Positions 29,223-58,515 of a stretch of DNA of 64,000 bases are shown here, one piece after another. The notes beneath the pieces were generated by a model. That model was not told the origin of the DNA. It saw only the letters and a list, made by a program, of their open reading frames with translations, and did no database searches. The DNA comes from Caldisericota bacterium (lineage in GTDB: Bacteria > Caldisericota > JANLFM01). Positions within the stretch are counted from its first letter, which is position 1. Every line of letters starts with the position of its first letter. The position numbers and the translations under genes were made by a program. The stretch is from the NCBI GenBank assembly GCA_024655965.1, contig JANLFL010000001.1, positions 22,049 to 86,048 on the forward strand, written 5' to 3'.

Positions 29223-29231
29223 ATCCTCCTC

Positions 29232-35004: not shown

Positions 35005-35019
35005 GATCCTCCTAACTTT

Positions 35020-36477: not shown

Positions 36478-36490
36478 CTCCCTCTCCTTT

Positions 36491-38167: not shown

Positions 38168-38177
38168 TCTTACCTCC

Positions 38178-38864
38178 TCAAGTGATCTGGAAGTTGATTT
38201 CCCTGGAGAAATAACGGTTCTTGAGCTCTTCCTTGCTCAATGACATTAGTTCTTTATACCCTTCCTCATATTTTCCTGAAGAAATGTCCTTCAGCCTCTG
38301 CTCGAGGAGGGCGCTCTTTTTGGTGAGGAACTTCCCGTAGATCCTCCGAGCAAGGAGGGCAATGTTGAATTGGGTAATCTCCGCAGGGCACCTTGCGCTG
38401 CAAAGCCCGCACATGATGCAATCAAAGGAGAGGTTTGCAACTTGCTCAAAATCCCCCCTGATTGCCGCCTGGACGAAATCCATTACCTGGAGTTCCTGAG
38501 GGCAGATCTTTGTGCAGGTGTTGCAGGAAAGGCAACGATATAGCTCGGGATAATGGCGAACGAAAACTTCCGGGTCAGGTTTCAGCTCCTCGATGTTGTA
38601 AATGGCCTTCGGGGCGGGGACAAATGGAATCTGGACAATCTGCATCTCGGGCTGGACAACGGTCTGACAACCCAGGCCCCCTCTCAATTTATAATCCCCT
38701 TTCAAGCGGTAAAGGGAAGCGCATGCCCCACAGAAGCCCTCTTTGCATCCAACTCCCTTTTTTAACTTGAAGCCCAGGTACTCAAGGGCGGTAATGATCG
38801 TCGAACCTTCCGGGACAAGAAATTTCCTCGAGTAAAGGTAAATTGGGATCAGGTCATGGGCCAT
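38178..38864 (-). CDS. SdhB/FrdB-like iron-sulfur subunit (2Fe-2S plus 4Fe-4S motifs)
   Basis: I choose ATG 38864 (MAHDLIP...), which abuts the upstream stop. Motifs CKEGFCGACA, CLSCNTCTKICP and CIMCGLCSARCP. Confidence 0.75.
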   Translation of the reverse strand: MAHDLIPIYLYSRKFLVPEGSTIITALEYLGFKLKKGVGCKEGFCGACASLYRLKGDYKLRGGLGCQTVVQPEMQIVQIPFVPAPKAIYNIEELKPDPEVFVRHYPELYRCLSCNTCTKICPQELQVMDFVQAAIRGDFEQVANLSFDCIMCGLCSARCPAEITQFNIALLARRIYGKFLTKKSALLEQRLKDISSGKYEEGYKELMSLSKEELKNRYFSREINFQIT

Positions 38865-38865
38865 A

Positions 38866-39771
38866 CTAAATTCCCCCCTTCTCTTTTTCAAAAAATCCCG
38901 CGAGCACCGGCTGAGGAGCCACGAAGTGCTCGTCGGTAAAACCATTTCCTTTTCCCAGAGCAATGGAAAGAAGCTCCGAATAATAAACTGCGGGGATGAA
39001 TTTGTGATCTGAATGGTTCTCCTTCGCTTCCTTTTGACGATAATCAAGGTTGAAGGCGCATAAAGGACAAGCGGTTATGACAATATCCGCCCCTCCCATT
39101 GAAGCTCCCTTGAGAATGTCGTAGACCAGATCGGAAACTAACCCCGTCTCTGTGACCGTCTGATAACTCCCGCAACAACGCATCCTCCTGGGGTTGGATG
39201 CGACTTCCGCACCTAATGACTCCACCAGGTCTTCCAAGATCGAGGGGTTCTCGGGGTCATCGATGGAAACATCTTTTGGTCTTAAAAGATTGCACCCGTA
39301 ATAAGGGGAAACCTTCAGTCCCTTCAGAGGTTTCTTGACCTTCTCTTTTATTTTTTCGAAGGAGATTTCCCTTAGGAGTTGAAGGGCGTGAATTATTTCC
39401 ACTTTTCCGAGGTATGGCTGGGCTTCAAGGTATAAGAAATCGTTAACCTTTTTCAAATCCTCGGGATTCCCCTTAAGGCGGGCGTTTGCCCTTTTCAAAA
39501 CGTTGAAGCACATGGCGCAGGAAACAACCAGGCGGGGGTCGTCGACCTCCCCCTTCTCCACAACTTCCTGGGTCCGAATCAGATTGGTAATTGGGGCCAC
39601 CTGCCTGAGGAGGTCATCCGAAACCAGGGAATAAACAGCTCCGCAGCAATTCCATCTGGGAAGTTCGACAAGGCTAACCCCGAGCTCTTCAAAAACCGCC
39701 CTGGTGGAGGCGTCGAAGTCCCGGGCTTTGGTTTTAAGGGTACACCCTGGATAATAAGGCATCCTGATCAT
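38866..39771 (-). CDS. HdrB-like / TfrB-C-terminal-like CCG-domain protein
   Basis: N-terminal YYPGCTLK and CCG motifs WNCCGAV and MRCCGSY. Confidence 0.8.
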   Translation of the reverse strand: MIRMPYYPGCTLKTKARDFDASTRAVFEELGVSLVELPRWNCCGAVYSLVSDDLLRQVAPITNLIRTQEVVEKGEVDDPRLVVSCAMCFNVLKRANARLKGNPEDLKKVNDFLYLEAQPYLGKVEIIHALQLLREISFEKIKEKVKKPLKGLKVSPYYGCNLLRPKDVSIDDPENPSILEDLVESLGAEVASNPRRMRCCGSYQTVTETGLVSDLVYDILKGASMGGADIVITACPLCAFNLDYRQKEAKENHSDHKFIPAVYYSELLSIALGKGNGFTDEHFVAPQPVLAGFFEKEKGGI

Positions 39772-39775
39772 CTCG

Positions 39776-40198
39776 TCACCCCGTGAACTTTCTCATAGCG
39801 GCCACAAGAGCAATTTGAGGGAGGATCTTCGCCTCTTCTTCCCCAATCTTTGAAAGGTCGAGGTAATCGATGGCCGCGCGAAGCTTTAACTGCCTCAGGG
39901 CTTCCGCCACCTTGGAGGGATCGATCCCCCGGGGACACCTGACAGAACATGTGTAACAGGAAGCGCAAATCCAGAATGTCTTGAAATTCAGGACCTCCTC
40001 CTCCCCCAATTGAACCATCCTCATCATCAAAGAGGGGGTCTGATCCATTTCTCCGACAAGGGGACAGCTTCCCGAACAGGTTCCGCATTGTTCGCAGAGG
40101 TTTATCGTCTCTCCGCTCAACTCCTCCACCTTTTTGGAAAATTCCCTGTTCTTGGGGCCTAAAAGGATCCTTTTAATTCGAAGAAAACCCTGCTTCAT
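39776..40198 (-). CDS. HdrC-like 4Fe-4S dicluster protein
   Basis: Motifs CEQCGTCSGSCP and CASCYTCSVRCP. 4-nt overlap with the upstream gene. Confidence 0.75.
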   Translation of the reverse strand: MKQGFLRIKRILLGPKNREFSKKVEELSGETINLCEQCGTCSGSCPLVGEMDQTPSLMMRMVQLGEEEVLNFKTFWICASCYTCSVRCPRGIDPSKVAEALRQLKLRAAIDYLDLSKIGEEEAKILPQIALVAAMRKFTG

Positions 40199-43100
40199 TC
40201 TCTCGCTCCCTGGGCCCTGGTCCAGATGTTCTGGGCCCTCTCCCTTATTCTTTCCCGCACTTCAGGGGGAATCTGGGGGACCTCCCGTTTCACAAATTTC
40301 ACCAGGGAGGCTACATATTTGAAGAAATCCGTAAGCAGAGAGGTCAAAAGTTCCGCCGATTTTAACCTCTCGGGATCAACCCCTTCATCCTTTAGAATCT
40401 GCTGCACAATCTTCACGTTCTCTCTTATAGCCTCGTTAGAACCAGGGAAGGGGGAAGCACGGCTATCGCATTCCCCTATGAAAATACCGTCAGCACCATT
40501 TGCGAAGGCTTCAAGTAAAAGAGCAGGGGTTACCCTGGCACCGGAGGGTACCCTGATGATTCTGGTTTCAACCGGGTAAGAGATTCGCGAGGTTCCCAGG
40601 TTATCCGCCAGCCGGTAAGTGCAAACTGAGTCAGCAAAAACCAGGACCCGGGAGTCGTCGGGTTTTTTCTCCTTAAGAGCCTCTTTTATCTGGGCTCTCA
40701 TTTCCGCATTGGTGTAGTAATGAAGGTCGAGGGCTTCTTGAGGACAGTGGGCAAGGCAGATTCCGCAACCCTTGCAAAGGGCTTCGTTAATTTTTATCTT
40801 CTCCCCTTCCCTGGAAATCGCCTCAACAGGACATGAGGGGAGGCAAAGGCCGCATCCGTCGCAGAGCTCGGAATGGAGAAAAGCCGTGATTGGTTCGATC
40901 TCGTAGTATCCCTTATTCATCAGGCGAATTGCCCTTGAGGCCGCCGCGGAAGCCTGAGCAACCGTATCCGGAATGTCCTTCGGTCCCTGGGCACAACCGG
41001 CAATGAAAATCCCGTCAATCAGGGTGTCGACAGGGCGGAACTTGGGATGGGCTTCCTGGAGGAAGCCATCAGGGCTCCTTGCCAGTTTGAGCATTTCGGA
41101 AATCCTGTCGGAGTCATTTGAAGGAACGAGGCCTGTGGACAGGACCACGGTATCGAATTCCCCCGAGATGAGGCTCCTCGTTAAGGTATCCTCCGCAGAA
41201 AGAATCAGGGTTCCGTTTTCAGGATTCCTCTGGATTTCCGCTACCCTTCCCCTGATGTATTTAATTCCCGATTTCTGGGCTCTCTTATAGTATTCCTCAA
41301 ATCCCTTCCCGTAAGCCCGGAGGTCGGTATAAAAAATGAAAATCTCCCGGGAGGGGTCCAGACGCTTCAAAAGCTGGGCAAGTTTGGTGGCGTACATGCA
41401 GCAAATTCTTGAGCAGTTCTCCCTTCCAATCTGCTCGTCCCTCGAGCCCACGCACTGGATGAAGGCAACCCGGTTACCTATGGCTCTCAGGGGAGGACCT
41501 GAAGATCCGGTGGAAATTATCCTTTCCAGTTCTAAAGCGGTGAGGATATTGGGAGAGTTCCCGTACTGGTAGACTGGTTTCAGCATGGGGTTGAAGGTCT
41601 CAAATCCCGTGGCCACGATGATCGTGTCCGCCTGGATCTCCTCAATTCTCTCGGTCTCCTCAAAATTAATGGCCTTCGGCTCGCAGGCCCTGACGCATTC
41701 CCGGCACTCGGAACATCCCCCGCAGTTCAGGCACCTTTCCGCTTCCCCCTTTACCGCTTCAGGGGACAACCCCAGGTTAACCTCCGATGAGTCAGAAACC
41801 AGGCTTTCGGGGATGGAAATTCTGGGCTTTGCCCGGGAGGATGGCTCAACTTTGGAGATGTCCGGCTCAATCGGGGAAGAATATGGGCCCTCAAATTCAC
41901 GGCCAACCCGGAGGTCCTCAAAGTTCAAATACCGATCGATGGAGATGGAAGCTTTTTTTCCGTGCCCCATTGCCTCGATGAAGGTAGAAGGTCCAAGGAC
42001 GGCATCCCCTCCGGCAAAAACTCCGGGAAGGGAAGTCTCCAGGGTGAGGGGGTCAGCTTTGATCAGCCCATCTTGATCGGACAAATTGAAGCCGTTTTCC
42101 GGGGGGAGTTCCTGCCCCACGGCAACGATCACGGTCTGGAATTCCTCGAGGTAGGTCTGCCCGGGGATGGGGATTGGTCTCCTCCTGCCTGTAGAATCCG
42201 GCTCCCCCAGCTCCATTTTTTGTAAAGTTACCAGAAGTCCGGAATCGCTTTTTTCAATTCTCAAGGGGGTCTCAAGGAAGCGGAATCCCACTCCCTCCAA
42301 CTGCGCTTCTTCAATTTCCTCCTCATTCGCCGGCATTTCCTTTCGGGTTCGGCGGTAGATGATCTCAACTTTTTCCGCCCCAAAGCGAATAAGGGTTCTT
42401 GCAGCGTCAATAGCGGCATTCCCTCCCCCGATGACCGCTGCCTTCCCCTTAATTCCCTCAACCTTGCCCGTGTTCGCTTCCTTCAAAAATTCCAGGGCTC
42501 CGAAAACCCCCGGAAGGTCTTCCCCAGGGATTCCCATTTTCCTGGAAGCCCAGGTTCCCACCGCAAGGAAGACCGCGTTGTATTCCTCGAGCAACCGGGA
42601 TAAGCCTTCCTTTCCTTTAATCTCCATCCCGGTGAAAAATTTGACTCCGATATCTGAAAGGACACCGAGCTCCCTGTCGAGGACTGCGCGGGGAAGCCGA
42701 TAAGGAGGGATTCCGTAACGGAGCATTCCCCCGATCTCCAACATCTTTTCAAAGACTGAAACCTCGTAACCCAGCATCCTTAAATTAAAGGCAGCCATCA
42801 GTCCTGCCGGCCCTGAGCCAACTATGGCAACTTTTTTTCCGTTGGAGGAAGGAGGGGAAAGCTCCCATTTTTTCCCTTGCTTTTCCGCGTAATCGTAGAT
42901 GAACCTCTTTAAAAGGTCTATGGCCAGTGGTTGGTCGACCCTTTCCCTACGGCAGGCAGTTTCGCAGGGATGAGTGCAGATTCTCCCGGTTATCCCCGGG
43001 AAGGGATTCGCTTCCCTGACCAATGCCAGGGCTTCCTCGTATTTCCCTTTCTTTATTAACTGAATATATCCCTGAGCGTTCACGTGGATCGGGCAGGCAG

Positions 43101-43968
43101 CCCGACAGGGAGAGGTTCCGATCTTGGTAATGAGGTACTTGTGGGGAACCGCCACATCGTTGTAAATGTGGATGGCTTTTCTCTGGGAAAGCCCGAGGTT
43201 GAACTGATTGGGCATCTCCACCGGACATTCCTTGGCGCAGTCCCCGCAGGCGGTGCACTTTTCCAGGTCGACGAAACGGGGCTTCCTCCGCACCTTGACC
43301 TTGAAGTTCCCCAGATACCCGCTAACCGATTCCACCTCGGAATAAGTGTAAAGGTGAATGTTCGGGTGCTCAGCGACATCCGCAAGTTTGGGTCCGATGA
43401 TGCAGGTTGCGCAGTCCTCGGTGGGGAAGGTTTTGGAGAGCATGGCCATCTTTCCCCCGATTGAGGCCTCCTTTTCCACCAGGAAGACCTCGAAGCCTGA
43501 ATCCCCGAGGTCGAGGGAAGCCTGAATTCCGGCAATTCCCCCTCCGATCACCAGGACCCTCTTCCCAATGGGCATCCTCTTCCTTTCGAGGGGGACATGA
43601 AGGGCGCAACGGGCAATGGCCATTCGAACCAAATCCTCAGCTTTCTTTGTGGCTTGCTGCTTGCTTGTGTGGCACCAGGAACAATGTTCACGGATATTTG
43701 CCATGTCGAAAAGATAAGGATTCAATTCCGCTTTTTCCAGGGTTTTCATGAAGGTCTTTTCGTGGAAAAGGGGAGAACAGGAAGCGACCACCACACGGTT
43801 CAGGGAATGTTCAGAGGCATCCTTCAAGATGCATTTTTGGCCGTCCTCAGAGCACATGTGCTCAAGGTCCCTGGCAACAACCACCCCGGGCTGCTCCGAT
43901 GCCACCTGGAGGAGCCTTTTCACATCGACGACATCGGAAATGTTTCCCCCGCAGTGGCAGATGTACAC
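40195..43968 (-). CDS. hdrA: HdrA / NfnB(GltD)-like / degenerate MvhD-like fusion flavoprotein (HdrL-like). True start probably upstream of the GTG at 43968.
   Basis: Motifs YICHCGGNIS, VIGGGIAGIQASLDLG, TFPTEDCATC and CTACGDCAKECP. Inserted module at aa ~280-683 (SPCRAACPIH, CTHPCETAC, GSGPAGL, GGGNAAID). Then CVGSRD...CSRICC, CDGCGLCLPSCP / CKGCGICLAHCP, and a C-terminal MvhD-like tail. Confidence 0.8.
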   Translation of the reverse strand: MYICHCGGNISDVVDVKRLLQVASEQPGVVVARDLEHMCSEDGQKCILKDASEHSLNRVVVASCSPLFHEKTFMKTLEKAELNPYLFDMANIREHCSWCHTSKQQATKKAEDLVRMAIARCALHVPLERKRMPIGKRVLVIGGGIAGIQASLDLGDSGFEVFLVEKEASIGGKMAMLSKTFPTEDCATCIIGPKLADVAEHPNIHLYTYSEVESVSGYLGNFKVKVRRKPRFVDLEKCTACGDCAKECPVEMPNQFNLGLSQRKAIHIYNDVAVPHKYLITKIGTSPCRAACPIHVNAQGYIQLIKKGKYEEALALVREANPFPGITGRICTHPCETACRRERVDQPLAIDLLKRFIYDYAEKQGKKWELSPPSSNGKKVAIVGSGPAGLMAAFNLRMLGYEVSVFEKMLEIGGMLRYGIPPYRLPRAVLDRELGVLSDIGVKFFTGMEIKGKEGLSRLLEEYNAVFLAVGTWASRKMGIPGEDLPGVFGALEFLKEANTGKVEGIKGKAAVIGGGNAAIDAARTLIRFGAEKVEIIYRRTRKEMPANEEEIEEAQLEGVGFRFLETPLRIEKSDSGLLVTLQKMELGEPDSTGRRRPIPIPGQTYLEEFQTVIVAVGQELPPENGFNLSDQDGLIKADPLTLETSLPGVFAGGDAVLGPSTFIEAMGHGKKASISIDRYLNFEDLRVGREFEGPYSSPIEPDISKVEPSSRAKPRISIPESLVSDSSEVNLGLSPEAVKGEAERCLNCGGCSECRECVRACEPKAINFEETERIEEIQADTIIVATGFETFNPMLKPVYQYGNSPNILTALELERIISTGSSGPPLRAIGNRVAFIQCVGSRDEQIGRENCSRICCMYATKLAQLLKRLDPSREIFIFYTDLRAYGKGFEEYYKRAQKSGIKYIRGRVAEIQRNPENGTLILSAEDTLTRSLISGEFDTVVLSTGLVPSNDSDRISEMLKLARSPDGFLQEAHPKFRPVDTLIDGIFIAGCAQGPKDIPDTVAQASAAASRAIRLMNKGYYEIEPITAFLHSELCDGCGLCLPSCPVEAISREGEKIKINEALCKGCGICLAHCPQEALDLHYYTNAEMRAQIKEALKEKKPDDSRVLVFADSVCTYRLADNLGTSRISYPVETRIIRVPSGARVTPALLLEAFANGADGIFIGECDSRASPFPGSNEAIRENVKIVQQILKDEGVDPERLKSAELLTSLLTDFFKYVASLVKFVKREVPQIPPEVRERIRERAQNIWTRAQGARE

Positions 43969-43988: not shown

Positions 43989-44546
43989 CTATAGGAGGCA
44001 GTATTGTCTCACCCCTTCCACATAAAGGTCATTTCCCTGGGGGTCAATTGCCACAATCAATGGGAGGTCTTCCACCTCCAGTTCCCGGATCGCTTCCGCC
44101 CCCAGTTCCTCGTAAGCCACGGTCCGGGAGGACTTGACCGCTTTGGCCAGGAGCACTCCCACCCCTCCAGTTGCCGCAAGGTAAACCGCGCCATTCCTTT
44201 TTATGGCTTCCACGACCTCGGGGCTTCTCTGACCTTTTCCGATCATTGCTTTTAGCCCCAAATCGAGGAGTATTGGGGAATAAGGGTCCATTCGCTCACT
44301 GGTTGTGGGTCCCGCGGAACCAATTACCTGTCCAGGCTTGGGAGGGGTTGGCCCCACATAATAAATCGCCTGCCCTTGGAGTTCAATGGGCAGTTCCTTT
44401 CCCTCTTTTATCAATTGGGCAAGCCTCCGATGGGCGGCATCCCTCGCAGTGTAAATTTTTCCGGAAAGGAGAACCCGGTCCCCGATCTTCAGGTCCTTTA
44501 AATCCTCCTTCCTGAGAGGGGTCTTCAATCTGATTTCTTGAGGCAT
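43989..44546 (-). CDS. fumB: class I (Fe-S) fumarate hydratase, beta subunit
   Basis: 185 aa. Motifs LSGKIYTARDAAHRRL and GPTTSERMD. Confidence 0.8.
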   Translation of the reverse strand: MPQEIRLKTPLRKEDLKDLKIGDRVLLSGKIYTARDAAHRRLAQLIKEGKELPIELQGQAIYYVGPTPPKPGQVIGSAGPTTSERMDPYSPILLDLGLKAMIGKGQRSPEVVEAIKRNGAVYLAATGGVGVLLAKAVKSSRTVAYEELGAEAIRELEVEDLPLIVAIDPQGNDLYVEGVRQYCLL

Positions 44547-45402: not shown

Positions 45403-45420
45403 TTATCCCAGCTCCTTTCC

Positions 45421-46485
45421 TCAATCTTTAAATCCCAGGGCCATGATGAGGTCTTCGGCGGTCACACCAGGCATTTCCTTTTCCCTCGATTCGATGAAAC
45501 TCTCCACCCTTGGAAGAAGCTCAAACTTTTCTCTTCTTGAGCCAATTAGGCTCTTCTCTAACTTTTCGGAAAGAGCAAGGCGAGGAATCAAGGTGAAATC
45601 CCCACTGATTGAAAGATCCTTAATCCTTCCTCCAATCGGTGGGCCTTCCACCTCCTGGACAGAACGGATTAAACCGCCCCGGGCTTTATGTTGACCGAAA
45701 ATCAAGTTTAGCCCTGATTTAATCTTCAATGAATCAACGACAGGCTTCCTTTTTCCGAAGAGGAACTCCGGTTTTTGCATTTCCCTCTCCAGGGCTTCCG
45801 CCCTTCTGAGGAAATCGGGAGGAAGTTCTCCCTTCTCAAGGGGTCCGAGGACCTTTTTGAACTCGGAGATCAGGACCTCCTCGACCTCCCTTCTGTCCGG
45901 AAGTTCCCCGAGTTCCTTTTTCATGGTGGTGAGGTTTTCCTCCAGGGTCTTGAAGACCTTATCCCTCCATTTCTCGTCCGGGATCTTTGCTACCTTTGAC
46001 ATGGTCCGATAATCGAAATCCATGAGCATGGATCCCACGAATACCATGCATTCGCCAATATCCGCCCCACCTTCGCCCCCGATCTTCTTCCCTTCGGGGG
46101 TAACGAGGTCGTTTATCTCCCGGAATCGGGCCTTGATCCCAAAGTGTTCGTGCGCCCGGCACGGTGGTTCAGAGAAAAGCTCATATGCCCCTTTTATGGT
46201 CTGGGGAAATTTCTTGTTCTTGCGGGAGTAAATCACCTGATAAAAAATTTGGTTCTCGTCGAGGTAGGTGGTCCCACCACCGACCTCCCTCCGGAAGAGA
46301 GGCAAACCGGAGTTCTTCAAATAATCGAGGTCCACTTCCTGGAAGGCATCCTGAAAATACCCAATGCTGATAATCGGTTTCTCGGGGGAGACGATAACCA
46401 GGGCTTCTGCCCCCTCTCGCGCAAGCTGGTGAAAGATGACCATCGAGAGGAGGCGGGGCATGCGATCAAGGCGGAAGAGATACAT
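45421..46485 (-). CDS. lplA: lipoate--protein ligase family protein (BPL/LPL catalytic domain)
   Basis: Motifs RREVGGGTTYLD and GKKIGGEG (lysine motif). 354 aa. Confidence 0.7.
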   Translation of the reverse strand: MYLFRLDRMPRLLSMVIFHQLAREGAEALVIVSPEKPIISIGYFQDAFQEVDLDYLKNSGLPLFRREVGGGTTYLDENQIFYQVIYSRKNKKFPQTIKGAYELFSEPPCRAHEHFGIKARFREINDLVTPEGKKIGGEGGADIGECMVFVGSMLMDFDYRTMSKVAKIPDEKWRDKVFKTLEENLTTMKKELGELPDRREVEEVLISEFKKVLGPLEKGELPPDFLRRAEALEREMQKPEFLFGKRKPVVDSLKIKSGLNLIFGQHKARGGLIRSVQEVEGPPIGGRIKDLSISGDFTLIPRLALSEKLEKSLIGSRREKFELLPRVESFIESREKEMPGVTAEDLIMALGFKD

Positions 46486-46494
46486 TTCCTTGCC

Positions 46495-46911
46495 CTATTT
46501 GGCTTTCTTCCGGATTTCCTCTTCCATCCACTTCAAAGCGGCTTCCCCTTTGAAGAGATTGTCCAGTTCCGAAGGGTCAGAAGCTTTGAGCTTGAAAAGC
46601 CAGCCCTCACCATAGGGGTCGAGGTTGGCGAGCGAGGGAGTGTCAACAACTTGAGAATTGACCTCCAGAATCGTCCCGCTTAAGGGGGAGTAGATCTTTC
46701 CCACCCATTTCCCGGTCTCCACGGTTCCAACCACGTCGTCCTGGGAATACTCATCGCCCTCAGAGGGAAGTTCAAGATAGGAGATCTCTCCGGCGAGTTT
46801 CTGAAAAAAATCGGTGACGCCGACCGTTGCGACATCACCTTCCATCCTTACCCAGAAGTGCTCCTTGTGGTACCAGAGGTCTTCTGGCAGCAGGTAACCC
46901 CCTACTTCCAT
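46495..46911 (-). CDS. gcvH: GcvH-like lipoyl-carrier protein
   Basis: Motifs HFWVRMEGDVATVGVTDF and VETGKWVGKIYSPLSGTILEVN (lipoyl-Lys context). ATG 46911 has a cgaaggagga RBS; the extension to 46977 is rejected. Confidence 0.8.
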   Translation of the reverse strand: MEVGGYLLPEDLWYHKEHFWVRMEGDVATVGVTDFFQKLAGEISYLELPSEGDEYSQDDVVGTVETGKWVGKIYSPLSGTILEVNSQVVDTPSLANLDPYGEGWLFKLKASDPSELDNLFKGEAALKWMEEEIRKKAK

Positions 46912-46976
46912 TGCGGTTCCTCCTTCGAAATTGATCCTCAAATTTGAAGGGCACGTAAGAATCCACGATTGAAACA

Positions 46977-46986
46977 ATTATAACCA
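46977..46986 (-). promoter_or_regulatory. candidate extended -10 promoter for the gcvH-to-flxA operon
   Basis: The minus strand reads TGGTTATAAT, about 65 nt upstream of the gcvH ATG, inside the only large AT-rich gap (46912-47118). Confidence 0.35.
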
Positions 46987-47118
46987 AAAGGAAAATAAAA
47001 TTCCCCATTTTTTAAACAAAATATTTTATTAAAAGGTTTTAAAAGGGGATTGTTAAACTTCAGGGGGTCCCGCAGAAATTGAGTAAAATTTGAAATAGAA
47101 AATTTTACTTATAGATTT

Positions 47119-47523
47119 CTATTTTTTGTGGGAGCAGATTTCCGTGAGCACAGAATTCGTGGACCGGGGGTGAAGGAAGAAAATCCAAGTATCATGGGAG
47201 CCTTCCCTGGGCTCCTGGTCGATAAATTCAAACCCCAGCGTTTTATATTCCCTCATCTGCCCCTCGATATCCTCGGTCTCAAAAGCAATGTGATGAAGAC
47301 CCTCGCCCCTCTTCTCCAGGAATTTCCCAATTGCACTGTCAGGGGAGGTGGGCTCGAGGAGCTCAACATGCACATCCCCAATCTCGAACATGGCAACTTT
47401 CACTTTTTGAGAAGGGACCTCCTCAATTCCCAGAAATTTCATTCCCAGGTTTTTAAAAACCGGAATGCTTTTTTCCAGGGAGTTAACAGCAATTCCAACG
47501 TGCTCGATTTTTTTAAGCATCAT
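47119..47523 (-). CDS. mce: methylmalonyl-CoA epimerase (VOC family)
   Basis: 134 aa. Motifs IEHVGIAV, VELLEP and GLHHIAF. Confidence 0.85.
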   Translation of the reverse strand: MMLKKIEHVGIAVNSLEKSIPVFKNLGMKFLGIEEVPSQKVKVAMFEIGDVHVELLEPTSPDSAIGKFLEKRGEGLHHIAFETEDIEGQMREYKTLGFEFIDQEPREGSHDTWIFFLHPRSTNSVLTEICSHKK

Positions 47524-48452
47524 TCATCCTCCTTCAGGGTGTCGGTGATTTTTTTGATTAATCCTCGAACAGTCTCGGGGGAATACCGGTCAAATGATTC
47601 GGGTTTTAATGAATCCTCAACCTTCATCCGGAAAAAATTCATCAAAGATTGGAAAACTTGAAAATAAGCCTGCCTCCTTCGCTTCTTTTCAAGTACTTCC
47701 AGGAAATTCTGGTTTTTCGGGATCCCTTTTAAGAACTCCCAGAGCTCGTCAAGCCCCTCTCCGGTTAAAGCATCAGTGGAAAAAACAGGGGGGATCCACC
47801 TGGCGTTCAAAAAACGGGGGGAACTACCGATCAGCGATTCGAGCTCCATCCGGAGTTTTTCCGCTCCCGGAAGGGTGCACTTGTTGATCAGGAAAAAATC
47901 CGCCACCTCCATCAAACCGGATTTCATCGCTTGAATATCGTCTCCTAAATTGGGGACGAGAACCACCCCCACCAGGTCAGCCAGGTACATCACCTCGACC
48001 TCCGCTTGCCCTACCCCCACAGTTTCCAAAAGAAGGAAGTCGAAGCCGTAGTAATCCATTAACTTGACCGAGGTAACAATTCCCGGGGAGAGCCCGCCAA
48101 GATGGCCCCTGGAGGAAAGGCTCCTGATAAATACCCGAGAAGGATCAAAATCCGGGATGGAGATCCTCAAGCGGTCAGCCAGGAGAGCTCCTCCGGAAAA
48201 TGGGCTGGAGGGATCAACCGCCAGGACGCCAACTGAAAAGCCTTCCTTAACTGCGCGAGAAATGATGCTCCTGATCAGGGTGCTCTTGCCGGATCCCGGA
48301 GGCCCGGTGAGGCCAATTTTATAACTTCCCGGGGGCTGGGAGATAATTTCTCCAAAAACCCTCTCGCAGGAAAGAGGATCGTTTTCAGCCAAGGAAATCG
48401 CCTTGGCCAGGGCCCTTAAATCTTTCCTTTTAAGGCCCTCAAGAAGCTGCAT
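47520..48452 (-). CDS. meaB: methylmalonyl-CoA mutase-associated GTPase
   Basis: P-loop [12 protein letters not shown], then ETVGVGQ and NKCT-like INKC. Confidence 0.85.
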
Positions 48453-48846
48453 CCTTCAAGGTTTTCTCGATGAAGGCGGTCACCTGATCGATGGTCGTTC
48501 CCGGAGGGAAGATCTCCCTGATTCCCCTGGATTTCAAATAAGGGATATCATCTGCGGGAATTACCCCTCCCCCGAAGACCACGATGTCCTCCGCCCCCTT
48601 CTCCTTTAAAAGCTCCACAACTTTGGGAAAAAGCTGGTTGTGGGCACCGGAAAGAAGGCTCAAACCGACAAATTGAACGTCCTCCTGGATTGCCGCCTTC
48701 ACGACATCCTCAGGTGTTTGCCGGATGCCCGTGTAAATTACCTCGAACCCTTCGTCCCTTAAAGCCTGGGCGATGTACTTTGCCCCCCTATCGTGACCGT
48801 CAAGTCCGACCTTGGCAATTAAAATCCGGATTTTTCCTTTCTCCAT
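48439..48846 (-). CDS. methylmalonyl-CoA mutase, B12-binding small subunit
   Basis: B12-binding DxHxxG context [13 protein letters not shown]. 135 aa. Confidence 0.85.
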
Positions 48847-48855
48847 TTTCCCCCT

Positions 48856-50520
48856 CTAAAAGATGACCTGCTGTTGGTATTCGCCGAAAACTTTCCGCAA
48901 GGCCCCGGTGATTTCCCCCAAAGTAGCGTATGCTCTCACTGCCTCGATAAAATGCGGGATCAGGTTCTCCTCGGTGGAAGCGACCTCCTCAATTTTTTGA
49001 AGGATGGCCTTCACCTTCCCGGAGTCCCTCTTTCCCTTCACTTCATTAATCCTGGCGATCTGGAGGTCCCGGAGTTTTGGATCGACCTTTAAAATTTCCT
49101 TCGGGGGTTCCTCATCGGTCTTGAACTTGTTCAACCCGACGATGATTCTCTCCCCGTTTTCGATGCTCTTCTGGTATTTGTATGCGGATGCCTGAATTTC
49201 CCTCTGGATGTAGCCCTGTTCGATGGCCTCAACCATGCTCCCCATTTTTTCAATCCGCTCAAGATACTCCACCGCTTTTCTTTCTATCTGATCGGTGAGG
49301 TACTCAAGGTAATAAGAGCCCCCGAGGGGGTCAACCGTACTGGTTACCCCTGACTCGTAGGCGATGATCTGCTGGGTCCTTAAGGCGATCTGAACGGATT
49401 TTTCCGTGGGGAGCCCCAGGGCTTCGTCCATGGAGTTGGTATGAAGGCTCTGGGTGCCACCCAGGACCGCCGCAAGGGCCTGAATTGCCACCCTGACGAT
49501 GTTGTTGTCCGGCTGCTGGGCAGTGAGGGTTGAGCCTCCAGTCTGCGTGTGGAAGCGGAGCATCAGGGAACGGGGGTCCCTTGCCTGGAACCTCTCCATC
49601 ATAATCCTCGCCCAGAGCCTCCGCGCTGCCCGAAATTTGGCCACCTCTTCCAGGAGGTCGTTGTGGGCGGCGAAGAAAAAGGAAAGCTGGGGGGCGAACT
49701 GATCGATGTCCATCCCCGCCTTTTGAGCAGCCTTGCAGTACTCGATCGCGTCGGCAAGCGTGAAAGCAACTTCCTGAACTGCATCCGCCCCCGCCTCGCG
49801 AATGTGATATCCGGAGATGGAAATTGGGTTCCACTTGGGCATTTCCCTGGCGCAGAATGCCAGGGTGTCCACGACCAGGCGCATTGAGGGCTTGGGAGGG
49901 AAAATGTAGGTCCCCCGGGCGATGTATTCCTTGAGAATATCGTTCTGAATTGTCCCCCGAAGCTGGGAACGGGGAACCCCCTGCTTTTCCGCAACCGCGA
50001 TGTACATAGATAAAAGAATTGCCGCCGGGGCGTTGATGGTCATGGAAGTGGAAACCTTATCCAGGGGAATGCCATCGAAAAGCACTTCCATATCCGCCAG
50101 GCTGTCGATCGCCACACCGACCTTTCCCACCTCTCCTTCAGCCAGGGGGTGGTCGGAATCGTATCCCACCTGAGTGGGAAGGTCGAAAGCCACGGAAAGC
50201 CCGGTCTGACCTTGATCGAGGAGGTACTTGAACCTTTTGTTTGACTGCTCCGCGGTCCCGAACCCAGCGTATTGCCTCATCGTCCAGAGCCTTCCCCGGT
50301 ACATGTTCGGGTATACCCCCCTGGTGAAGGGGTATTCACCGGGAAATCCTAACTTTTCAAGATACTCCTCCTCCCTGAATTCCAGGGGGGTATAGAGGGG
50401 GTCCACCTTATTTCCGGAAACCGTGGAGAATTCCTTTTCCCTTTCCGGGGACTTAGAAACGAAATCCTTTAAAGTGGAGCCCTGCCAGCGCTCCTTCTCT
50501 TTTGCGATTCTTTCTCCCAT
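48856..50520 (-). CDS. methylmalonyl-CoA mutase, large catalytic subunit
   Basis: 554 aa. Motifs [23 protein letters not shown] and [15 protein letters not shown]. Confidence 0.9.
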
Positions 50521-50550
50521 TTGATTCCTCCAGAGGTTTAGGAAAACGAT

Positions 50551-52050
50551 TTATTCAATTTCGGTCAAACCGACTTCGAAATCCTGATCCCCGATCCGGA
50601 TGATGAACCTCTTCTGAGGATGACCGTCGGGGGTGGGGAGGGTGGTCTTCAAAGCCTCCTCCCTGACCTTCTTCTTGAGGGGGTCTTTCTGGGCTTCGAA
50701 GAACTCCTTGGCAACCTTGGGGTAAAGGGCGTAAGTCAGGATGTCCTCCTCCTTGTCGGAATAGGGCTCCATTTCCTTCCTGGCTTTTTCCCATTCCGGA
50801 GGAAGGTAATCGGCTGGCCTTCCCTCGATCGGTTTCTCATCCCCGATAGCTTTCTTCATCACCGTGGGGTCAATGGGAGCGGGGGTCCTTCCGTAAAGGC
50901 CCCGACAGAGGTCCTTTACCTCCTGAATGATGATCTTGTACCGCTCGCCGGCGAGGACGTTCATGGTCGCTTGAGTACCCACGATCTGGGAGGTGGGCGT
51001 GACCAGAGGAACATAGCCAAGTTCAGCCCGCACCCTGGGGATTTCCCTCAACACGTCCTCGAACTTGTCGAGGGCGTTCTGCTTCTCGAGCTGGTTCACC
51101 ATGTTGGAGAGCATCCCTCCAGGGACCTGGTAAACCAGAGCCCGGACGTCAACCCTCTCGGCAATCGGGCTGAGGAGGCTCTTGTAAGCGGTATCCTTGA
51201 TTTCCTGGAAGTAATCAGCGATCTCCAGGAAGTGGCTCTTGTCGATCCTCAACTTGAAACCGGCATCCTGGAGCATTTCCACCATGGTCTCGGTGGGGGG
51301 TTGGGAGGTCCCCATGCTGAATGGAGAAATGGCGCAGTCGATGATATCCACTCCGGCTTCCGCTGCCTCAAAGTAAGCGGTGGGGGCCATTCCCGTGGTG
51401 CAGTGAGAGTGGAGGCAAACGGGAAGGCCGATTTCCGCCTTTAACCTGCTCACAAGCTCAGAGGCGGCACGGGGGGTGATCAGTCCAGCCATATCTTTGA
51501 TGGTGATGATGTCGCACCCCAGTTCCTTCAATTCCCGGGCGAATTTCACGAACCCCTCGATGGAATGGACAGGGCTTAAAGTGTAGCTTAAAGCCCCCTG
51601 GACGATGGCTCCGGTTTTCTTTGCCACGACGATGGCCTTCTCCATGTTCCGGATGTCGTTCAAGGCGTCAAAAATGCGGAAGACGTTGATCCCCAATTCC
51701 GCGGCCTTATTGATGAAGCGCTCGAGGATGTCATCGGGGTAATGCTTGTAACCCACGAGGTTCTGCCCGCGAAGGAGCATCTGCAACTTGGTATTCTTGG
51801 CGTATTTTTTGAAGACCCTGATCCGATCCCAGGGGTTTTCATCCAAAAAGCGAATCATCGAGTCGAAGGTCGCCCCGCCCCACATTTCGAATGACCAGTA
51901 ACCCACCTGATCCATCTTCTCGATCATGGGGATCATGTCCTTAGTGCGCATCCGGGTGGCGATCAACGACTGGTGAGCGTCGCGGAAACCGGTTTCGGTT
52001 ATCTCAACGAGGTGATTTTTTCCCTGCACAATTTTTCCTTCCATGCTCAT
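50551..52050 (-). CDS. carboxyltransferase 5S subunit (oxaloacetate decarboxylase alpha / pyruvate carboxylase B-like)
   Basis: Motifs ETGFRDAHQSL and CLHSHCTTGMA. No biotinyl domain of its own. Confidence 0.85.
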   Translation of the reverse strand: MSMEGKIVQGKNHLVEITETGFRDAHQSLIATRMRTKDMIPMIEKMDQVGYWSFEMWGGATFDSMIRFLDENPWDRIRVFKKYAKNTKLQMLLRGQNLVGYKHYPDDILERFINKAAELGINVFRIFDALNDIRNMEKAIVVAKKTGAIVQGALSYTLSPVHSIEGFVKFARELKELGCDIITIKDMAGLITPRAASELVSRLKAEIGLPVCLHSHCTTGMAPTAYFEAAEAGVDIIDCAISPFSMGTSQPPTETMVEMLQDAGFKLRIDKSHFLEIADYFQEIKDTAYKSLLSPIAERVDVRALVYQVPGGMLSNMVNQLEKQNALDKFEDVLREIPRVRAELGYVPLVTPTSQIVGTQATMNVLAGERYKIIIQEVKDLCRGLYGRTPAPIDPTVMKKAIGDEKPIEGRPADYLPPEWEKARKEMEPYSDKEEDILTYALYPKVAKEFFEAQKDPLKKKVREEALKTTLPTPDGHPQKRFIIRIGDQDFEVGLTEIE

Positions 52051-52055
52051 CCTCC

Positions 52056-52472
52056 CTACTCCACGAGGATCATCGTCTCGCCGGAATTCACGTTCTGCCC
52101 CTCCACAACCAGCACTTCCTTCACCCTTCCCGGAAATGGGGCGGCAATTTCGGTTTCCATCTTCATGGCCTCAAGTTTCAAAATCACGTCCCCTTCCTTG
52201 ATCTCCTGTCCGGGCTGGCAGAGAATCTTTAAGACTGTCCCGCTCATCGGAGCCTGCACTTTTTTCAGTCCGGAAATCTCCGAGACCTTGGGCTTTCCTG
52301 AAGGGGGTTGGGGCACCTGGGGCATCTGCACGGGGATGCTTTTTGGTGGGGGCGGAGTCGGAGGGGGTGAGGTTTCCACGGCAGGCGAAATGGAGGTGAC
52401 CCTTTTTGTGACCTCCTCGACCTCCACCTCGTAGGTCTTGTTATCCACTCGGATCAAATACTTTCGGGTCAT
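52056..52472 (-). CDS. biotin carboxyl-carrier protein (1.3S-type) with a Pro-rich linker
   Basis: Biotinylation motif LEAMKMETEI. PPPTPPPP linker. Confidence 0.85.
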   Translation of the reverse strand: MTRKYLIRVDNKTYEVEVEEVTKRVTSISPAVETSPPPTPPPPKSIPVQMPQVPQPPSGKPKVSEISGLKKVQAPMSGTVLKILCQPGQEIKEGDVILKLEAMKMETEIAAPFPGRVKEVLVVEGQNVNSGETMILVE

Positions 52473-52478
52473 CTTTCT

Positions 52479-52664
52479 TTATCCTTTCACACGGGTCATA
52501 TTCAATCGCCTTCCCTCCAGGCCCCAGAGGTTGATCTGGGATAGCTGGACGGGTTTTATGGAAACAACCTTGAAGGAGAACTTCTCGTCGCGAAGGTATC
52601 GGGCTAAGGCAGCCGCGATAACCACTTTGATCTCCGGAGGAATGGTGTCCTTTTTTTCTTCCAT
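52479..52664 (-). CDS. small protein of the carboxyltransferase operon (OadG-C-terminal-like motif, no TM helix)
   Basis: 61 aa, tightly packed between the 12S and 1.3S genes. Motif VVIAAALARYL. Confidence 0.4.
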   Translation of the reverse strand: MEEKKDTIPPEIKVVIAAALARYLRDEKFSFKVVSIKPVQLSQINLWGLEGRRLNMTRVKG

Positions 52665-52678
52665 TTTCTCTCCCCTCC

Positions 52679-54235
52679 TTAAAGGGGAATGTTCCCGTGT
52701 TTTTTGGGAGGAGCCTGGTCCCTCTTCGTCCTGAAGATTGCCAGGGCCGATGCGATCCTCCCCCTGGTTTCCTCTGGGGGGATCACAGCATCGACATAAC
52801 CTCTCTTTGCGGCTTCGTAGGGGTTGGAAAAGAGCCTCTCGTAATCCTCGGTGAGCTCCTTTCTCTTTTCTTCGGGGTTGGAGGAACTCTCAATTTCCCT
52901 CTTGAAAATGATGTTGATCGCCCCCTGAGCGCCCATGACCGCGATCTCCGCCTGAGGCCAGGCGAGCATCAGGTCGCAACCCAGGTCCTTGTTGCACATG
53001 GCGATATGCGCCCCCCCGTAGGATTTGCGAAGGGTCACGGTGATTTTGGGGACTGTGGCTTCCGCATATGCGAAGAGCAATTTTGCCCCGTGTCGAATAA
53101 TCCCCCCGTGCTCCTGCTGTTTTCCGGGCAAGTACCCGGGGCAGTCCACCAGGGTAACGAGGGGAATGTTGAAGGCATCGCAAAACCGCACGAAGCGAGC
53201 TGCCTTGTCCGAAGAATTGATGTCCAGGCAGCCTGCGAGAACCTGAGGTTGGTTTCCGATGATCCCCACGGTCATTCCGGCGATCCTCCCAAAACCGACA
53301 ACGATGTTGGGGGCGAAGAACTCCTGGACCTCCAAAAAATCTCCGTTGTCCACGATATGGGAAATCACATCCTTGATGTTGTAAGGGATTTTGGGGTTGG
53401 TAGGAACTAGTTCCCTCAGGTCGTAAACGATCCTTCCAGGGTCATCCCCGGTATCAAACACCGGGGGATCGTCGAGGTTATTGCCCGGGAGGAAGGAAAG
53501 AAGCCTCCGCACTCCTTGGAAGCATTCCTCCTCGGAATTAAAGAGAAAGTGGGCATTTCCGGAGACGCTGGAGTGGACCATCCCTCCCCCCAGTTCCTCG
53601 ACGCCGATTTCCTCGCCGGTAACCGCCTTGATCACCTGGGGACCGGTGATGTACATGTTAGAGACCTTATCGACCATGAAGACGAAGTCAGTAATTGCTG
53701 GTGAGTAAACCGCCCCTCCAGCGCAGGGACCCAGGATGATGGAAATCTGAGGGATTACCCCCGAGGCCCTGGTGTTGCGGAAGAAAATCTGCCCGTAGCC
53801 GTGAAGGGAATCAACCCCCTCCTGAATTCTGGCCCCTCCGGAATCGTTAATCCCGATCAGGGGGACCCCCATTTTCATCGCCATGTCTTGCATCTTGGCG
53901 ATTTTCATGGCGTGAGCTTCCCCAAGAGAACCTCCGGCGAGGGAAAAATCCTGGGAGAAGAGGAAAACCGGCCGTCCGTTTATCAGCCCGTAACCCGTGA
54001 CCACGGCATCCGCGGGAATCTCCACCTTGTCCATTCCAAAGTTGGTGCATCGGTGCTGGACGAAAGCGTCATATTCGATGAATGAATCGGGGTCAACAAG
54101 GAGTTCGATCCTTTCCCTGGCGGAGAGCTTCCCCTTCTCGTGCTGTTTTTTTGCCCTCGTGCCATCGGCGTCAATGATGTTTGCCCTTTTCTCCTCCAAC
54201 TCCCTGATCAACTGTTTGATAGTTTTTTCAGCCAT
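52679..54235 (-). CDS. methylmalonyl-CoA carboxyltransferase 12S subunit / acyl-CoA carboxylase beta
   Basis: 518 aa. Motifs DSGGARIQEG, GPCAGGAVYSP and GYLPG..QEHGGIIRHGAK. Confidence 0.9.
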   Translation of the reverse strand: MAEKTIKQLIRELEEKRANIIDADGTRAKKQHEKGKLSARERIELLVDPDSFIEYDAFVQHRCTNFGMDKVEIPADAVVTGYGLINGRPVFLFSQDFSLAGGSLGEAHAMKIAKMQDMAMKMGVPLIGINDSGGARIQEGVDSLHGYGQIFFRNTRASGVIPQISIILGPCAGGAVYSPAITDFVFMVDKVSNMYITGPQVIKAVTGEEIGVEELGGGMVHSSVSGNAHFLFNSEEECFQGVRRLLSFLPGNNLDDPPVFDTGDDPGRIVYDLRELVPTNPKIPYNIKDVISHIVDNGDFLEVQEFFAPNIVVGFGRIAGMTVGIIGNQPQVLAGCLDINSSDKAARFVRFCDAFNIPLVTLVDCPGYLPGKQQEHGGIIRHGAKLLFAYAEATVPKITVTLRKSYGGAHIAMCNKDLGCDLMLAWPQAEIAVMGAQGAINIIFKREIESSSNPEEKRKELTEDYERLFSNPYEAAKRGYVDAVIPPEETRGRIASALAIFRTKRDQAPPKKHGNIPL

Positions 54236-54300
54236 CGTTTCTACCTCACTTGTTAGGTGGCACGAAATTATCTGAAACAGGAAAAAGCTTCATTGCTTGG

Positions 54301-54306
54301 ATTATA
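54301..54306 (-). promoter_or_regulatory. candidate -10 box for the methylmalonyl-CoA pathway operon
   Basis: The minus strand reads TATAAT, about 65 nt upstream of the 12S ATG, in the 102-bp gap after birA. Confidence 0.35.
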
Positions 54307-54337
54307 AATGAAAGGCGGGTTTTTGAAAAGAAAAAAT

Positions 54338-56874: not shown

Positions 56875-56914
56875 TCCCCTCAAGCATTCGAACAGGGAAA
56901 TATGAATTTTTTTT

Positions 56915-56944
56915 TCAGGAGTCGGGCTCAAGCCCGACTCCTGA
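56915..56944 (+). terminator. strong stem-loop after the first pilin gene (possible partial terminator/attenuator)
   Basis: 13-bp perfect stem tcaggagtcgggc-tcaa-gcccgactcctga. There is no good downstream T-run. Confidence 0.4.
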
Positions 56945-56977
56945 AACTTTCCGGCTCATTTTCACCAAGGAGGTGCC

Positions 56978-57415: not shown

Positions 57416-57514
57416 AGGGAACTTGGGCATTTTTTACAGGGGATTCCCATTTCTTAAAACAAGGAAAACCCCCAAAATGGCGCCAGCAAAACCAATTGTG
57501 ATAGAATTTCCACC

Positions 57515-58480: not shown

Positions 58481-58515
58481 TTTGTTCATGCTGAGTAGGG
58501 AAGGACCGCTTTTCC

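Follow-up and report, generated by a model that had tools for sequence, protein, structure and literature searches.

The stretch analysed here, 64,000 nucleotides (nt) of contig JANLFL010000001.1 from a Caldisericota bacterium (the window), holds a cluster of fumarase, heterodisulfide reductase (Hdr)-type and fumarate reductase (Frd)-type genes. The cluster is headed by a gene for a small protein resembling GcvH, the H-protein that belongs to the glycine cleavage system (GCS), and by a gene for a lipoate ligase. Residue comparisons support placing this small protein, GcvHL, outside the canonical glycine-cleavage H-proteins and in a clade that carries the signature K-W-x-G-K/R and lacks Glu14, Ser67 and Asp68. 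GcvHL is proposed, with a probability of about 0.5, to be a dedicated lipoyl dithiol/disulfide partner of the HdrB-type subunits encoded in the same cluster, working towards fumarate reduction, and to be a lineage-restricted addition to these modules.

GcvHL and its relatives

The GcvHL gene starts at an ATG at 46911, with an AAGGAGG Shine-Dalgarno sequence 7 nt upstream, and ends at 46495 with the stop codon included. The lipoyl context VETGKWVGKIYSPLSG reported in the earlier note is confirmed, with the motif VETGKWVGK, and alignment with E. coli and B. subtilis GcvH assigns the lipoyl lysine to Lys68 (codon 46710..46708). An AlphaFold2 (AF2) model computed with 16 clade members has a pLDDT (predicted local distance difference test) of 94; in it, strands 60-66 and 70-74 form a beta-hairpin that carries Lys68 at its tip. 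The fold is that of an H-protein. Foldseek comparison of the model with solved H-proteins gives template modelling (TM) scores of 0.87/0.94 to the Thermus thermophilus H-protein and a root-mean-square deviation of 1.2 Å (1ONL), and GcvHL shares 41-43% identity with the solved structures.

In the E. coli H-protein (PMC7733448), the positively charged aminomethyl group is locked in its cavity by Glu12 and Glu14, and on release it is guided to the T-protein by Ser67, Asp68 and Tyr70. GcvHL retains Glu12, His13 and Tyr70. The closest database proteins (53-93% identity) carry a signature that is absent from ordinary H-proteins, as seen when 90 clade members are compared with 74 canonical GcvH from species-representative genomes (E. 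coli numbering). Residue 14 is Glu in 74/74 canonical proteins and is never Glu in the 90 clade members, which have Met, Ala, Gln, Cys or Leu; the corresponding residue of GcvHL is Phe. Residue 68 is acidic in 74/74 canonical proteins and Lys or Arg in 86/90 clade members, with Lys in GcvHL. Residue 67 is Ser in 70/74 canonical proteins and Gly in 90/90 clade members, residue 65 is Ala or Thr in canonical proteins and Trp in 90/90 clade members (GcvHL included in both cases), and the lipoyl Lys is invariant in 90/90, an invariance of Trp, Gly and Lys that is partly circular because those positions were part of the locus search pattern, outside which Glu14 lay. The replacement of two acidic residues by a hydrophobic and a basic one argues against a role as an aminomethyl carrier. 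In a neighbour-joining tree the clade splits from canonical GcvH in 86/100 bootstraps, although both sequence sets were chosen by motif, so that intermediates are under-sampled and the gap is overstated. The phylogenetic placement that the earlier note had called for sets the protein apart from canonical GcvH.

Neighbouring genes separate the same two groups. Loci of 77 clade-type and 80 canonical gcvH genes from species-representative genomes were scored for neighbours within six genes, using a simple open reading frame (ORF) caller seeded by BLAST hits; the frequencies are lower bounds because many loci are incomplete contigs. GcvT is a neighbour in 44/80 canonical and 0/77 clade loci, and GcvP in 41/80 and 0/77. 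Conversely, a CCG-domain protein (HdrB/HdrD/LutA-type) is a neighbour in 26/77 clade loci and in 0/80 canonical ones. The difference persists among loci with at least 10 neighbouring genes (23/50 versus 0/47; Fisher p = 7e-10, kinship ignored). Other neighbours in the clade include HdrA (22 loci), an LplA-type ligase (13-21) and fumarase (13), and 8 of these 13 fumarase-linked loci also encode the ligase.

Five phyla or more share a gcvH-(lplA)-fumA-fumB-hdrA-hdrC-hdrB-frdB-frdA-malic enzyme cluster, with protein identities of 55-93%; they include Caldisericota, Coprothermobacterota, Thermodesulfobiota, Aerophobetes and Atribacterota. It is also present in an unclassified digester bacterium. 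In Coprothermobacterota and Thermodesulfobiota the cluster is placed directly after transcarboxylase genes, and in Aerophobetes the order is malic enzyme-fumAB-gcvH-lplA-hdrC-hdrB-hdrA-frdB-frdA. That the genes stay linked in different phyla although their order changes is good evidence that they are functionally connected.

Beyond fumarase-linked loci, the variant H-protein occurs in several other settings. Relatives in Altiarchaeota lie at the end of clusters resembling the sHdr (Hdr-like) clusters of sulfur oxidisers. In WOR-3 and relatives (L022, L023, L032) the variant directly follows FlxABCD-HdrACB-DsrE2-DsrE-DsrE-DsrH, a sulfur-relay-type setting unlike that of the window. In Desulfarculaceae (L024, L028, L029, L056) it precedes LarA and an 839-residue fusion of FAD-linked oxidase (D-lactate dehydrogenase), Fer4 and CCG domains. 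An Oleimicrobiaceae locus (L174) combines it with LarA, a FAD-linked oxidase, an HdrD-like protein, an LplA ligase and HdrCBA-MvhD, and in L051 it heads an operon of LplA, LutA-like, LutB-like and Ldh_2 genes. Two variant copies flank a FAD-linked oxidase and a Fer4-CCG (HdrD-like) protein in Desulfosporosinus (L080, L083, L085, L089-L091). Beside the variant H-proteins of these loci (for example L089:1505-13229) lie E1alpha, E1beta, NAD-kinase-like and E2 (CMD domain) genes and a LipB-LipA fusion; the same cluster further holds LipS2-like, LipS1-like and methyltransferase genes, and makes up a 2-oxoacid-dehydrogenase-type system.

The common denominator of these settings is a CCG-domain partner, not fumarate. 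A tentative generalization, less probable than the proposal for the window itself, is that H-proteins with K-W-x-G-K/R may be the physiological protein-bound dithiol/disulfide of CCG subunits (HdrB, HdrD, GlcF, LutA-type) in many anaerobic bacteria and archaea. If so, the clade would parallel CoM-S-S-CoB and DsrC with lipoate as the redox group, the window operon would be one instance of it, and fumarate reductase, lactate/glycolate-type and 2-oxoacid dehydrogenases and sulfur-relay modules would all plug into Hdr/Flx bifurcation through it.

The window cluster and the direction of electron flow

The cluster and the other features that bear on it are as follows (aa, amino acids).

46912..47118, intergenic: AT-rich gap separating the GcvH-like gene from the gene for methylmalonyl-CoA epimerase; 207 nt, GC 30% versus 50% in the window
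46495..46911, minus strand: GcvH-like lipoyl carrier (GcvHL), 138 aa; Pfam GCV_H 133 bits
45421..46485, minus strand: lipoate(octanoate)-protein ligase of the LplA family, 354 aa, to whose C-terminal part an LplB-like domain is weakly matched; Pfam LplA-B_cat 126 bits
44557..45402, minus strand: class I (Fe-S) fumarate hydratase alpha subunit; NF004885 425 bits, above cut-off
43989..44546, minus strand: fumarate hydratase beta subunit; NF005310 271 bits, above cut-off
40195..43968, minus strand: HdrA of module I, 1257 aa, carrying a GltD-like NAD(P)H/FAD insertion and a C-terminal MvhD domain; HdrA2 model 922 bits; Pyr_redox_2, Fer4_20, FlpD
39776..40198, minus strand: HdrC-like di-[4Fe-4S] subunit (module I); Fer4_17/Fer4_8, CoB_CoM_SS_C model
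38866..39771, minus strand: HdrB-like subunit (HdrB1, module I), 301 aa; Pfam CCG x2
38178..38864, minus strand: FrdB/TfrB-N-like Fe-S subunit, 228 aa, 12 Cys; Joint Genome Institute (JGI) gene call and orthologues
36491..38167, minus strand: TfrA/FrdA-like fumarate reductase flavoprotein; best-scoring model TfrA (NF004900), 342 bits, below the cut-off of 718
35020..36519, minus strand: malic enzyme; Pfam malic, Malic_M
33635..35004, minus strand: HdrC2 and HdrB2 (module II); two complete CCG motifs in HdrB2
25994..33638, minus strand: giant HdrA (1468 aa), MvhD/FlxD and FlxC-, FlxB- and FlxA-like proteins (module II, NAD(P)H-linked)
47119..55033, minus strand: methylmalonyl-CoA pathway, with epimerase, MeaB, methylmalonyl-CoA mutase small and large subunits, transcarboxylase 5S, biotin carboxyl carrier protein, 12S and BirA; Pfam on JGI gene calls
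8375-9433, plus strand: AmmeMemoRadiSam-system radical SAM enzyme; TIGR04337 314 bits

All genes of the cluster are on the minus strand. Seventeen are co-directional, with the GcvH-like gene and the ligase at the head, followed by fumarase alpha and beta, the HdrA-GltD-MvhD fusion, HdrC, HdrB, the FrdB-like and TfrA/FrdA-like proteins and malic enzyme, and then by the second HdrC and HdrB, the giant HdrA, MvhD and the FlxC/B/A-like proteins, where the cluster ends at 25994. Gaps and overlaps are about 20 nt or less except between fumB and hdrA, whose distance varies from 20 to about 100 nt with the choice of start. Gene calls and Pfam agree with the earlier description of the GcvH-like gene as the first after the gap, with the ligase 9 nt on and fumarase and the Hdr modules behind it. 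The gap had also been called an AT-rich promoter region; its AT-richness is evident, but the promoter is an assumption, as a scan of 45300-47700 for sigma-70 promoters and terminators returned nothing above chance on the minus strand.

The genes upstream of the gap, co-directional with the GcvH-like gene, make up a complete Wood-Werkman type methylmalonyl-CoA set plus BirA. The cluster carries malic enzyme and no malate dehydrogenase. The mechanical ORF of the FrdB-like protein (38178-39047, minus strand) would encode 289 aa from a TTG start and share 182 nt with HdrB; a 228-aa protein starting near 38864 is favoured by the JGI gene call and by orthologues.

The partners of a glycine-cleavage or 2-oxoacid dehydrogenase lipoyl protein are missing from the window, in line with the earlier observation. 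Hidden Markov models (HMMs) built from 44 GcvT and 41 GcvP neighbours of canonical gcvH detected neither protein in the six frames of the 64-kb window, and searches of the same frames for E2 (phmmer with an E2 protein) and for dihydrolipoyl dehydrogenase (Lpd, by its disulfide active-site motif) gave no match. Similarly, no GCS-type gene appears by domain or BLAST label within the 10-kb flanks of three orthologous loci (L001, L012, L178).

The ligase ORF (46485..45421) begins exactly 9 nt past the GcvHL stop. Its catalytic Lys is kept, with GKKIGG aligned to GKKVSG of the Mycoplasma hyopneumoniae ligase (6JOM), which together with the bipartite T. acidophilum LplA/LplB is its nearest solved relative; E. 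coli LplA is not among its Protein Data Bank matches. The enzyme scores far under every NCBIfam ligase cut-off (112 bits on TIGR00545, cut-off 280) and its clade comprises over 1000 proteins, all unnamed and encoded by uncultured anaerobes. Its C-terminal LplB-like domain is weakly matched (NF053749, 41 bits against a cut-off of 65; 3R07_C, 27.9 bits, E = 1e-5).

Two separate Hdr modules lie in this one cluster (25994-43968, minus strand); in WOR-3 the modules are on different contigs. HdrB1 has two full five-Cys CCG motifs (Cys 10, 42, 43, 85, 88 and 160, 199, 200, 235, 238), as does HdrB2.

The flavoprotein indicates a likely direction. Its DANSMMSQGG aligns, in comparison with SdhA/FrdA structures, to SHTVSAQGG of E. 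coli SdhA, so that Asn replaces the His that binds FAD covalently, and this Asn is conserved in 12/12 other FrdA of fumarase-linked loci that were checked. In E. coli Frd and Sdh, loss of the covalent FAD bond lowers the flavin potential and abolishes succinate oxidation, while fumarate reduction is kept. The Asn therefore favours a reductive role. The potential of fumarate is about +30 mV. Lipoamide has an E0' of -290 mV (PMC6067878), and a dithiol donor of this potential fits fumarate reduction, whereas syntrophic succinate oxidation fits poorly. The energetic caveat of the earlier note, that the negative lipoyl couple suits fumarate reduction over succinate oxidation, is upheld.

These features suggest the following sequence of events. 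GcvHL would have left the glycine cleavage system with its H-protein fold kept, and the ligase would attach lipoate or octanoate to Lys68. The (dihydro)lipoyl arm would then dock at the HdrB CCG subunits, one or both, and be reduced or oxidised at their non-cubane [4Fe-4S] clusters. In the most likely form of the mechanism, dihydrolipoyl-GcvHL would stand in for the CoM-SH and CoB-SH of thiol:fumarate reductase, HdrB1 and the FrdB-like protein would be a split TfrB, and the FrdA-like protein would be TfrA. Electrons would go to fumarate made by the co-encoded fumarase and malic enzyme, and the NAD(P)H-linked HdrA(GltD) and Flx modules may re-reduce the disulfide or balance it against ferredoxin. 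Gene content, fold, the changed residues, synteny, the association with CCG-domain proteins and the FrdA lacking the His for covalent FAD are observed; lipoylation of GcvHL, its contact with HdrB and the direction of electron flow are the presumptive parts of this scheme.

Elsewhere in the window, translations suggest HerA-like ATPase, Mre11/SbcD-like, Rad50/SbcC-like and NurA-like genes (9446-15858 and 19551-20720, plus strand) with a histone-deacetylase-like gene among them, an archaeal-style set in a bacterial window. At least eight genes at 56473-63966 (plus strand) have translations with type IV pilin/pseudopilin-like N-termini (GFTLIE...), and amid them the translation of 58516-59283 resembles a prepilin-peptidase-like membrane protein.

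Limits of the proposal and alternative explanations

The dependence between the lipoyl protein and its partners was also read in the reverse direction. A search of species genomes with the motif D[AS]NSMM[SA]Q and a second FrdA pattern yielded more than 578 FrdA relatives, and the 80 closest loci (58-92% identity) were read for a GcvH-like gene within 10 kb. FrdB-like proteins are present in 72/80 and HdrA in 59/80, and most loci have HdrA/C/B plus MvhD or Flx. A GcvH-like gene, however, is found in 4/80 (all in Caldisericota-type lineages) and a ligase in 2/80. One locus (L210) has FumA-FumB-HdrC-HdrB-HdrA-FrdB-FrdA without the gcvH-lplA pair, and the pair is likewise lacking in L224, L244 and L251. 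An H-protein variant is present in the same assembly, sometimes on another contig, for 13/27 of the closest FrdA relatives and for 1/53 of the more distant ones. The lipoyl protein is rejected as an obligatory subunit of this Hdr-Frd type. It depends on Hdr-type partners and not vice versa, and the pair is a lineage-restricted addition.

This result divides the central suggestion of the earlier note. That the lipoyl arm could be an HdrB substrate is favoured by the non-canonical clade, the absence of gcvT and gcvP beside its members, the frequency of CCG neighbours and the conserved linkage; that it is the general missing substrate of HdrB does not hold, since most Hdr-Frd modules of the same type are without it.

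Several further points weigh against the proposal. GcvHL passes the NCBIfam gcvH model TIGR00527 narrowly (118.5 bits, cut-off 115.85). Within the clade, monophyly of the fumarase-linked members was rejected, at 0/100 bootstraps in a poorly resolved tree of a short protein, and the motif-based sampling already mentioned inflates the distance of the clade from canonical GcvH. About 87 ETGKW-type relatives are all that occur in 185,579 species genomes. The absence of gcvT and gcvP covers the window, and their use of GcvHL from elsewhere in the genome is conceivable. No lipoyl synthase is found among the window proteins scanned; the radical SAM gene in the window was considered as a LipS-type lipoyl synthase and rejected, being of the AmmeMemoRadiSam type and 37 kb away. 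Finally, at -290 mV the lipoyl couple lies too low to serve as high-potential acceptor in an NADH-driven bifurcation, which makes the place of GcvHL in the Flx-Hdr module energetically unclear. A confurcating reaction with GcvHL as donor is conceivable there instead.

The alternative that survives best, although it is an unlikely one, is that HdrB1 only wires electrons from HdrC to FrdB, and that the lipoyl protein serves module II (HdrB2-Flx) alone or is an optional side input from another lipoyl-dependent redox pool, and would not be the thiol that reduces fumarate. CCG subunits of type-E succinate:quinone reductases wire electrons, and the HdrB (157 bits) and SdhE anchor (152 bits) models match HdrB1 equally well. 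The many Hdr-Frd modules without a lipoyl protein agree with such a role, as does WOR-3, where the variant H-protein adjoins the module II homologue (HdrC2/HdrB2-type with Flx) and Frd-Hdr is on another contig. On the other hand, one Caldisericota lineage pairs the variant with module I while module II is not nearby, the Aerophobetes protein lies directly before HdrC1/HdrB1, and a -290 mV disulfide would be an unfavourable high-potential acceptor for NADH-driven bifurcation.

A rather improbable alternative is that GcvHL is an ordinary glycine-cleavage H-protein or a lipoyl relay, as in Bacillus GcvH, that came to lie here by chance or for the sake of co-regulation while gcvT, gcvP and lpd are encoded elsewhere. 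Besides the narrow pass on TIGR00527, GcvHL clears NF002270 (134.9 bits, cut-off 117), and the other clade members tested likewise clear a GcvH model cut-off. The NCBIfam models do not split the clade from canonical proteins, and hence public annotation is "glycine cleavage system protein GcvH" for all. The H-protein fold and the identity to solved H-proteins are also as expected of a housekeeping protein, a ligase adjoins gcvH in 3/80 canonical loci as well, FolD is present in the window, and the gcvT/gcvP search spans the window. Against this stand the replacement of Glu14, Ser67 and Asp68, the acidic ones by hydrophobic or basic residues (PMC7733448), the lack of gcvT or gcvP beside any of the 77 relatives when about half of canonical loci have them, and the conserved place in Hdr/Frd operons of at least five phyla. 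Moreover, a true GCS H-protein in the same setting is of the canonical type: 13 Aminicenantes/Eubacteriales loci have a canonical-type gcvH (BLAST-labelled) on the opposite strand near Frd-Hdr, within a block that matches an ordinary gcvT-gcvH-gcvPA-gcvPB operon in the sizes of its genes. In these loci (L207, L214, L219, L221, L228, L232, L233, L235, L236, L238, L245, L250, L254) the block of canonical size is a few genes downstream of Hdr-Kor-like-Flx-Frd, and four small genes between HdrB and HdrA (about 90, 388, 290 and 190 aa) have, by size, the look of korDABC.

Slightly less probable again is a structural, regulatory or protective accessory, either a lipoyl thiol buffer or antioxidant or a non-lipoylated scaffold, that takes no part in catalytic electron transfer. 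Lipoylated proteins have antioxidant roles in some bacteria (PMC10332631), and the protein is dispensable in most related operons. An accessory of this kind is hard to reconcile with a lipoyl Lys kept throughout the clade together with its flanking Trp and Gly (which the search pattern required), with a dedicated ligase in the majority of fumarase-linked loci, or with repeated association with CCG-domain enzymes rather than stress genes.

The least probable alternative, that GcvHL is a sulfur carrier of the type of LbpA, the lipoate-binding protein of sHdr, whose dihydrolipoyl arm takes sulfane sulfur to Hdr-like subunits in an operon with a sulfur-metabolic side, can point to the sHdr-like clusters of the Altiarchaeota proteins among its closest named relatives, to the DsrE2-DsrE-DsrE-DsrH and Flx-Hdr genes before the WOR-3 variants and to the ligase that LbpA also requires (PMC6067878), but GcvHL has zero cysteines (43/90 clade members are cysteine-free) where LbpAs conserve a pair, located towards the N and C termini and missing only in some archaeal LbpAs (PMC6067878), no DsrE, TusA, rhodanese, LipS1/S2 or sHdr-type short HdrA was found in the window, and every neighbour is an enzyme of the C4-dicarboxylate or methylmalonyl-CoA pathway.

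Significance and comparison with known systems

The thiol/disulfide substrate of Hdr-type complexes outside methanogens has long been an open question, with only DsrC in sulfate reducers and LbpA in sulfur oxidisers proposed or shown. DsrC has been proposed as the Hdr disulfide of sulfate reducers. The present candidate makes the question concrete in a carbon-metabolic setting, in the form of a small lipoyl protein, accompanied by a dedicated ligase, that could be expressed and assayed. That setting is fumarate reduction and the methylmalonyl-CoA/propionate pathway of uncultured digester and sediment bacteria. The signature (Glu14 lost, K-W-x-G-K/R following from the lipoyl Lys) also sets the clade apart from true GcvH, and current pipelines, which give all its members the name "glycine cleavage system protein H", lead metagenome-based metabolic reconstructions to overpredict glycine cleavage. 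The claim is narrowed by the reciprocal result, which also informs models of bifurcating fumarate reductases. A search of the available literature found no description of a bacterial GcvH-like protein linked to fumarase/Hdr/Frd, of the K-W-x-G-K/R signature or of the link to lactate dehydrogenase and CCG proteins; the nearest reports are Kohtz et al. 2022 and Cao et al. 2018.

The proposed reaction resembles that of TfrAB. In methanogens, this enzyme oxidises the thiol pair CoM-SH/CoB-SH at its CCG site and reduces fumarate. The window shares with it a soluble FrdA-like flavoprotein, a FrdB-like Fe-S module and two CCG domains. However, TfrB is one polypeptide, whereas the window HdrB (301 aa) and FrdB-like protein (228 aa) are encoded by separate adjacent genes, correspond in function to the parts of the fused protein, and are joined to HdrA/HdrC. 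CoM and CoB are not expected in the window bacterium, and the flavoprotein falls well short of the TfrA model (342 bits, cut-off 718).

FlxABCD-HdrABC (Ramos et al. 2015, as cited in PMC6315080) offers a second parallel. In clusters of the reductive tricarboxylic acid (rTCA) cycle, tfrAB is interleaved with flx-hdr (Rubin-Blum et al. 2019, PMC6315080), so that an NAD(P)H-linked Flx/Hdr is encoded with a Tfr-like fumarate reductase, as in the window. Unlike the window, these rTCA clusters have no GcvH-like protein and no ligase.

Two other systems can be likened to the window by gene content. Wood-Ljungdahl pathway clusters of acetogens contain gcvH and lpdA (PMC4600107) and share with the window an H-protein without gcvP/gcvT in a redox/carbon operon, its role unexplained; in contrast to the window, dihydrolipoyl dehydrogenase is present and no CCG-type partner has been noted. 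In Culexarchaeia, GcvH is found by an Ehe hydrogenase-HdrBC cluster, SdhA and HdrA2B2C2 (Kohtz et al. 2022, PMC9723716), and its lipoyl group has already been proposed, in a one-paragraph hypothesis, as the unknown disulfide of HdrB (PMC9723716). Common to this system and the window is a GcvH-type protein near HdrB and a succinate dehydrogenase/fumarate reductase flavoprotein, a likeness of gene content. The Culexarchaeia system differs in being archaeal and membrane-hydrogenase-linked, with no ligase or fumarase, and was described without family-level analysis.

The nearest established system is sHdr-LbpA-sLpl(AB) (Cao et al. 2018, PMC6067878; Tanabe et al. 2023, PMC10332631), in which LbpA is indispensable to sHdr and is served by a dedicated ligase. 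Both systems have a GcvH-like protein with a single lipoyl domain, CCG Hdr subunits and an LplA-type ligase of their own, in which a fused LplB-like domain is weakly matched in the window enzyme, and the sHdr LbpA, like the window protein, is distinct from housekeeping GcvH. GcvHL was set against LbpA1 and LbpA2 by published discriminators rather than in a tree. The window has no conserved cysteines in the lipoyl protein, no sulfurtransferases, and no LipS1/S2 or LipT, and no DsrE/TusA-like gene lies in its tightly packed cluster. The Hdr types differ as well: the sHdr set is hdrC1B1-short hdrA-hyp-hdrC2B2, whereas the HdrA proteins of the window have 1257 and 1468 aa with GltD and MvhD modules, plus Flx. 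Likewise, the window partners are fumarase, fumarate reductase and malic enzyme in a methylmalonyl-CoA pathway cluster. Given these differences in cysteines, sulfurtransferases, LipS1/S2, Hdr type and carbon setting, GcvHL is not filed as an sHdr LbpA of the sulfur-oxidiser type that the earlier note had brought to mind.

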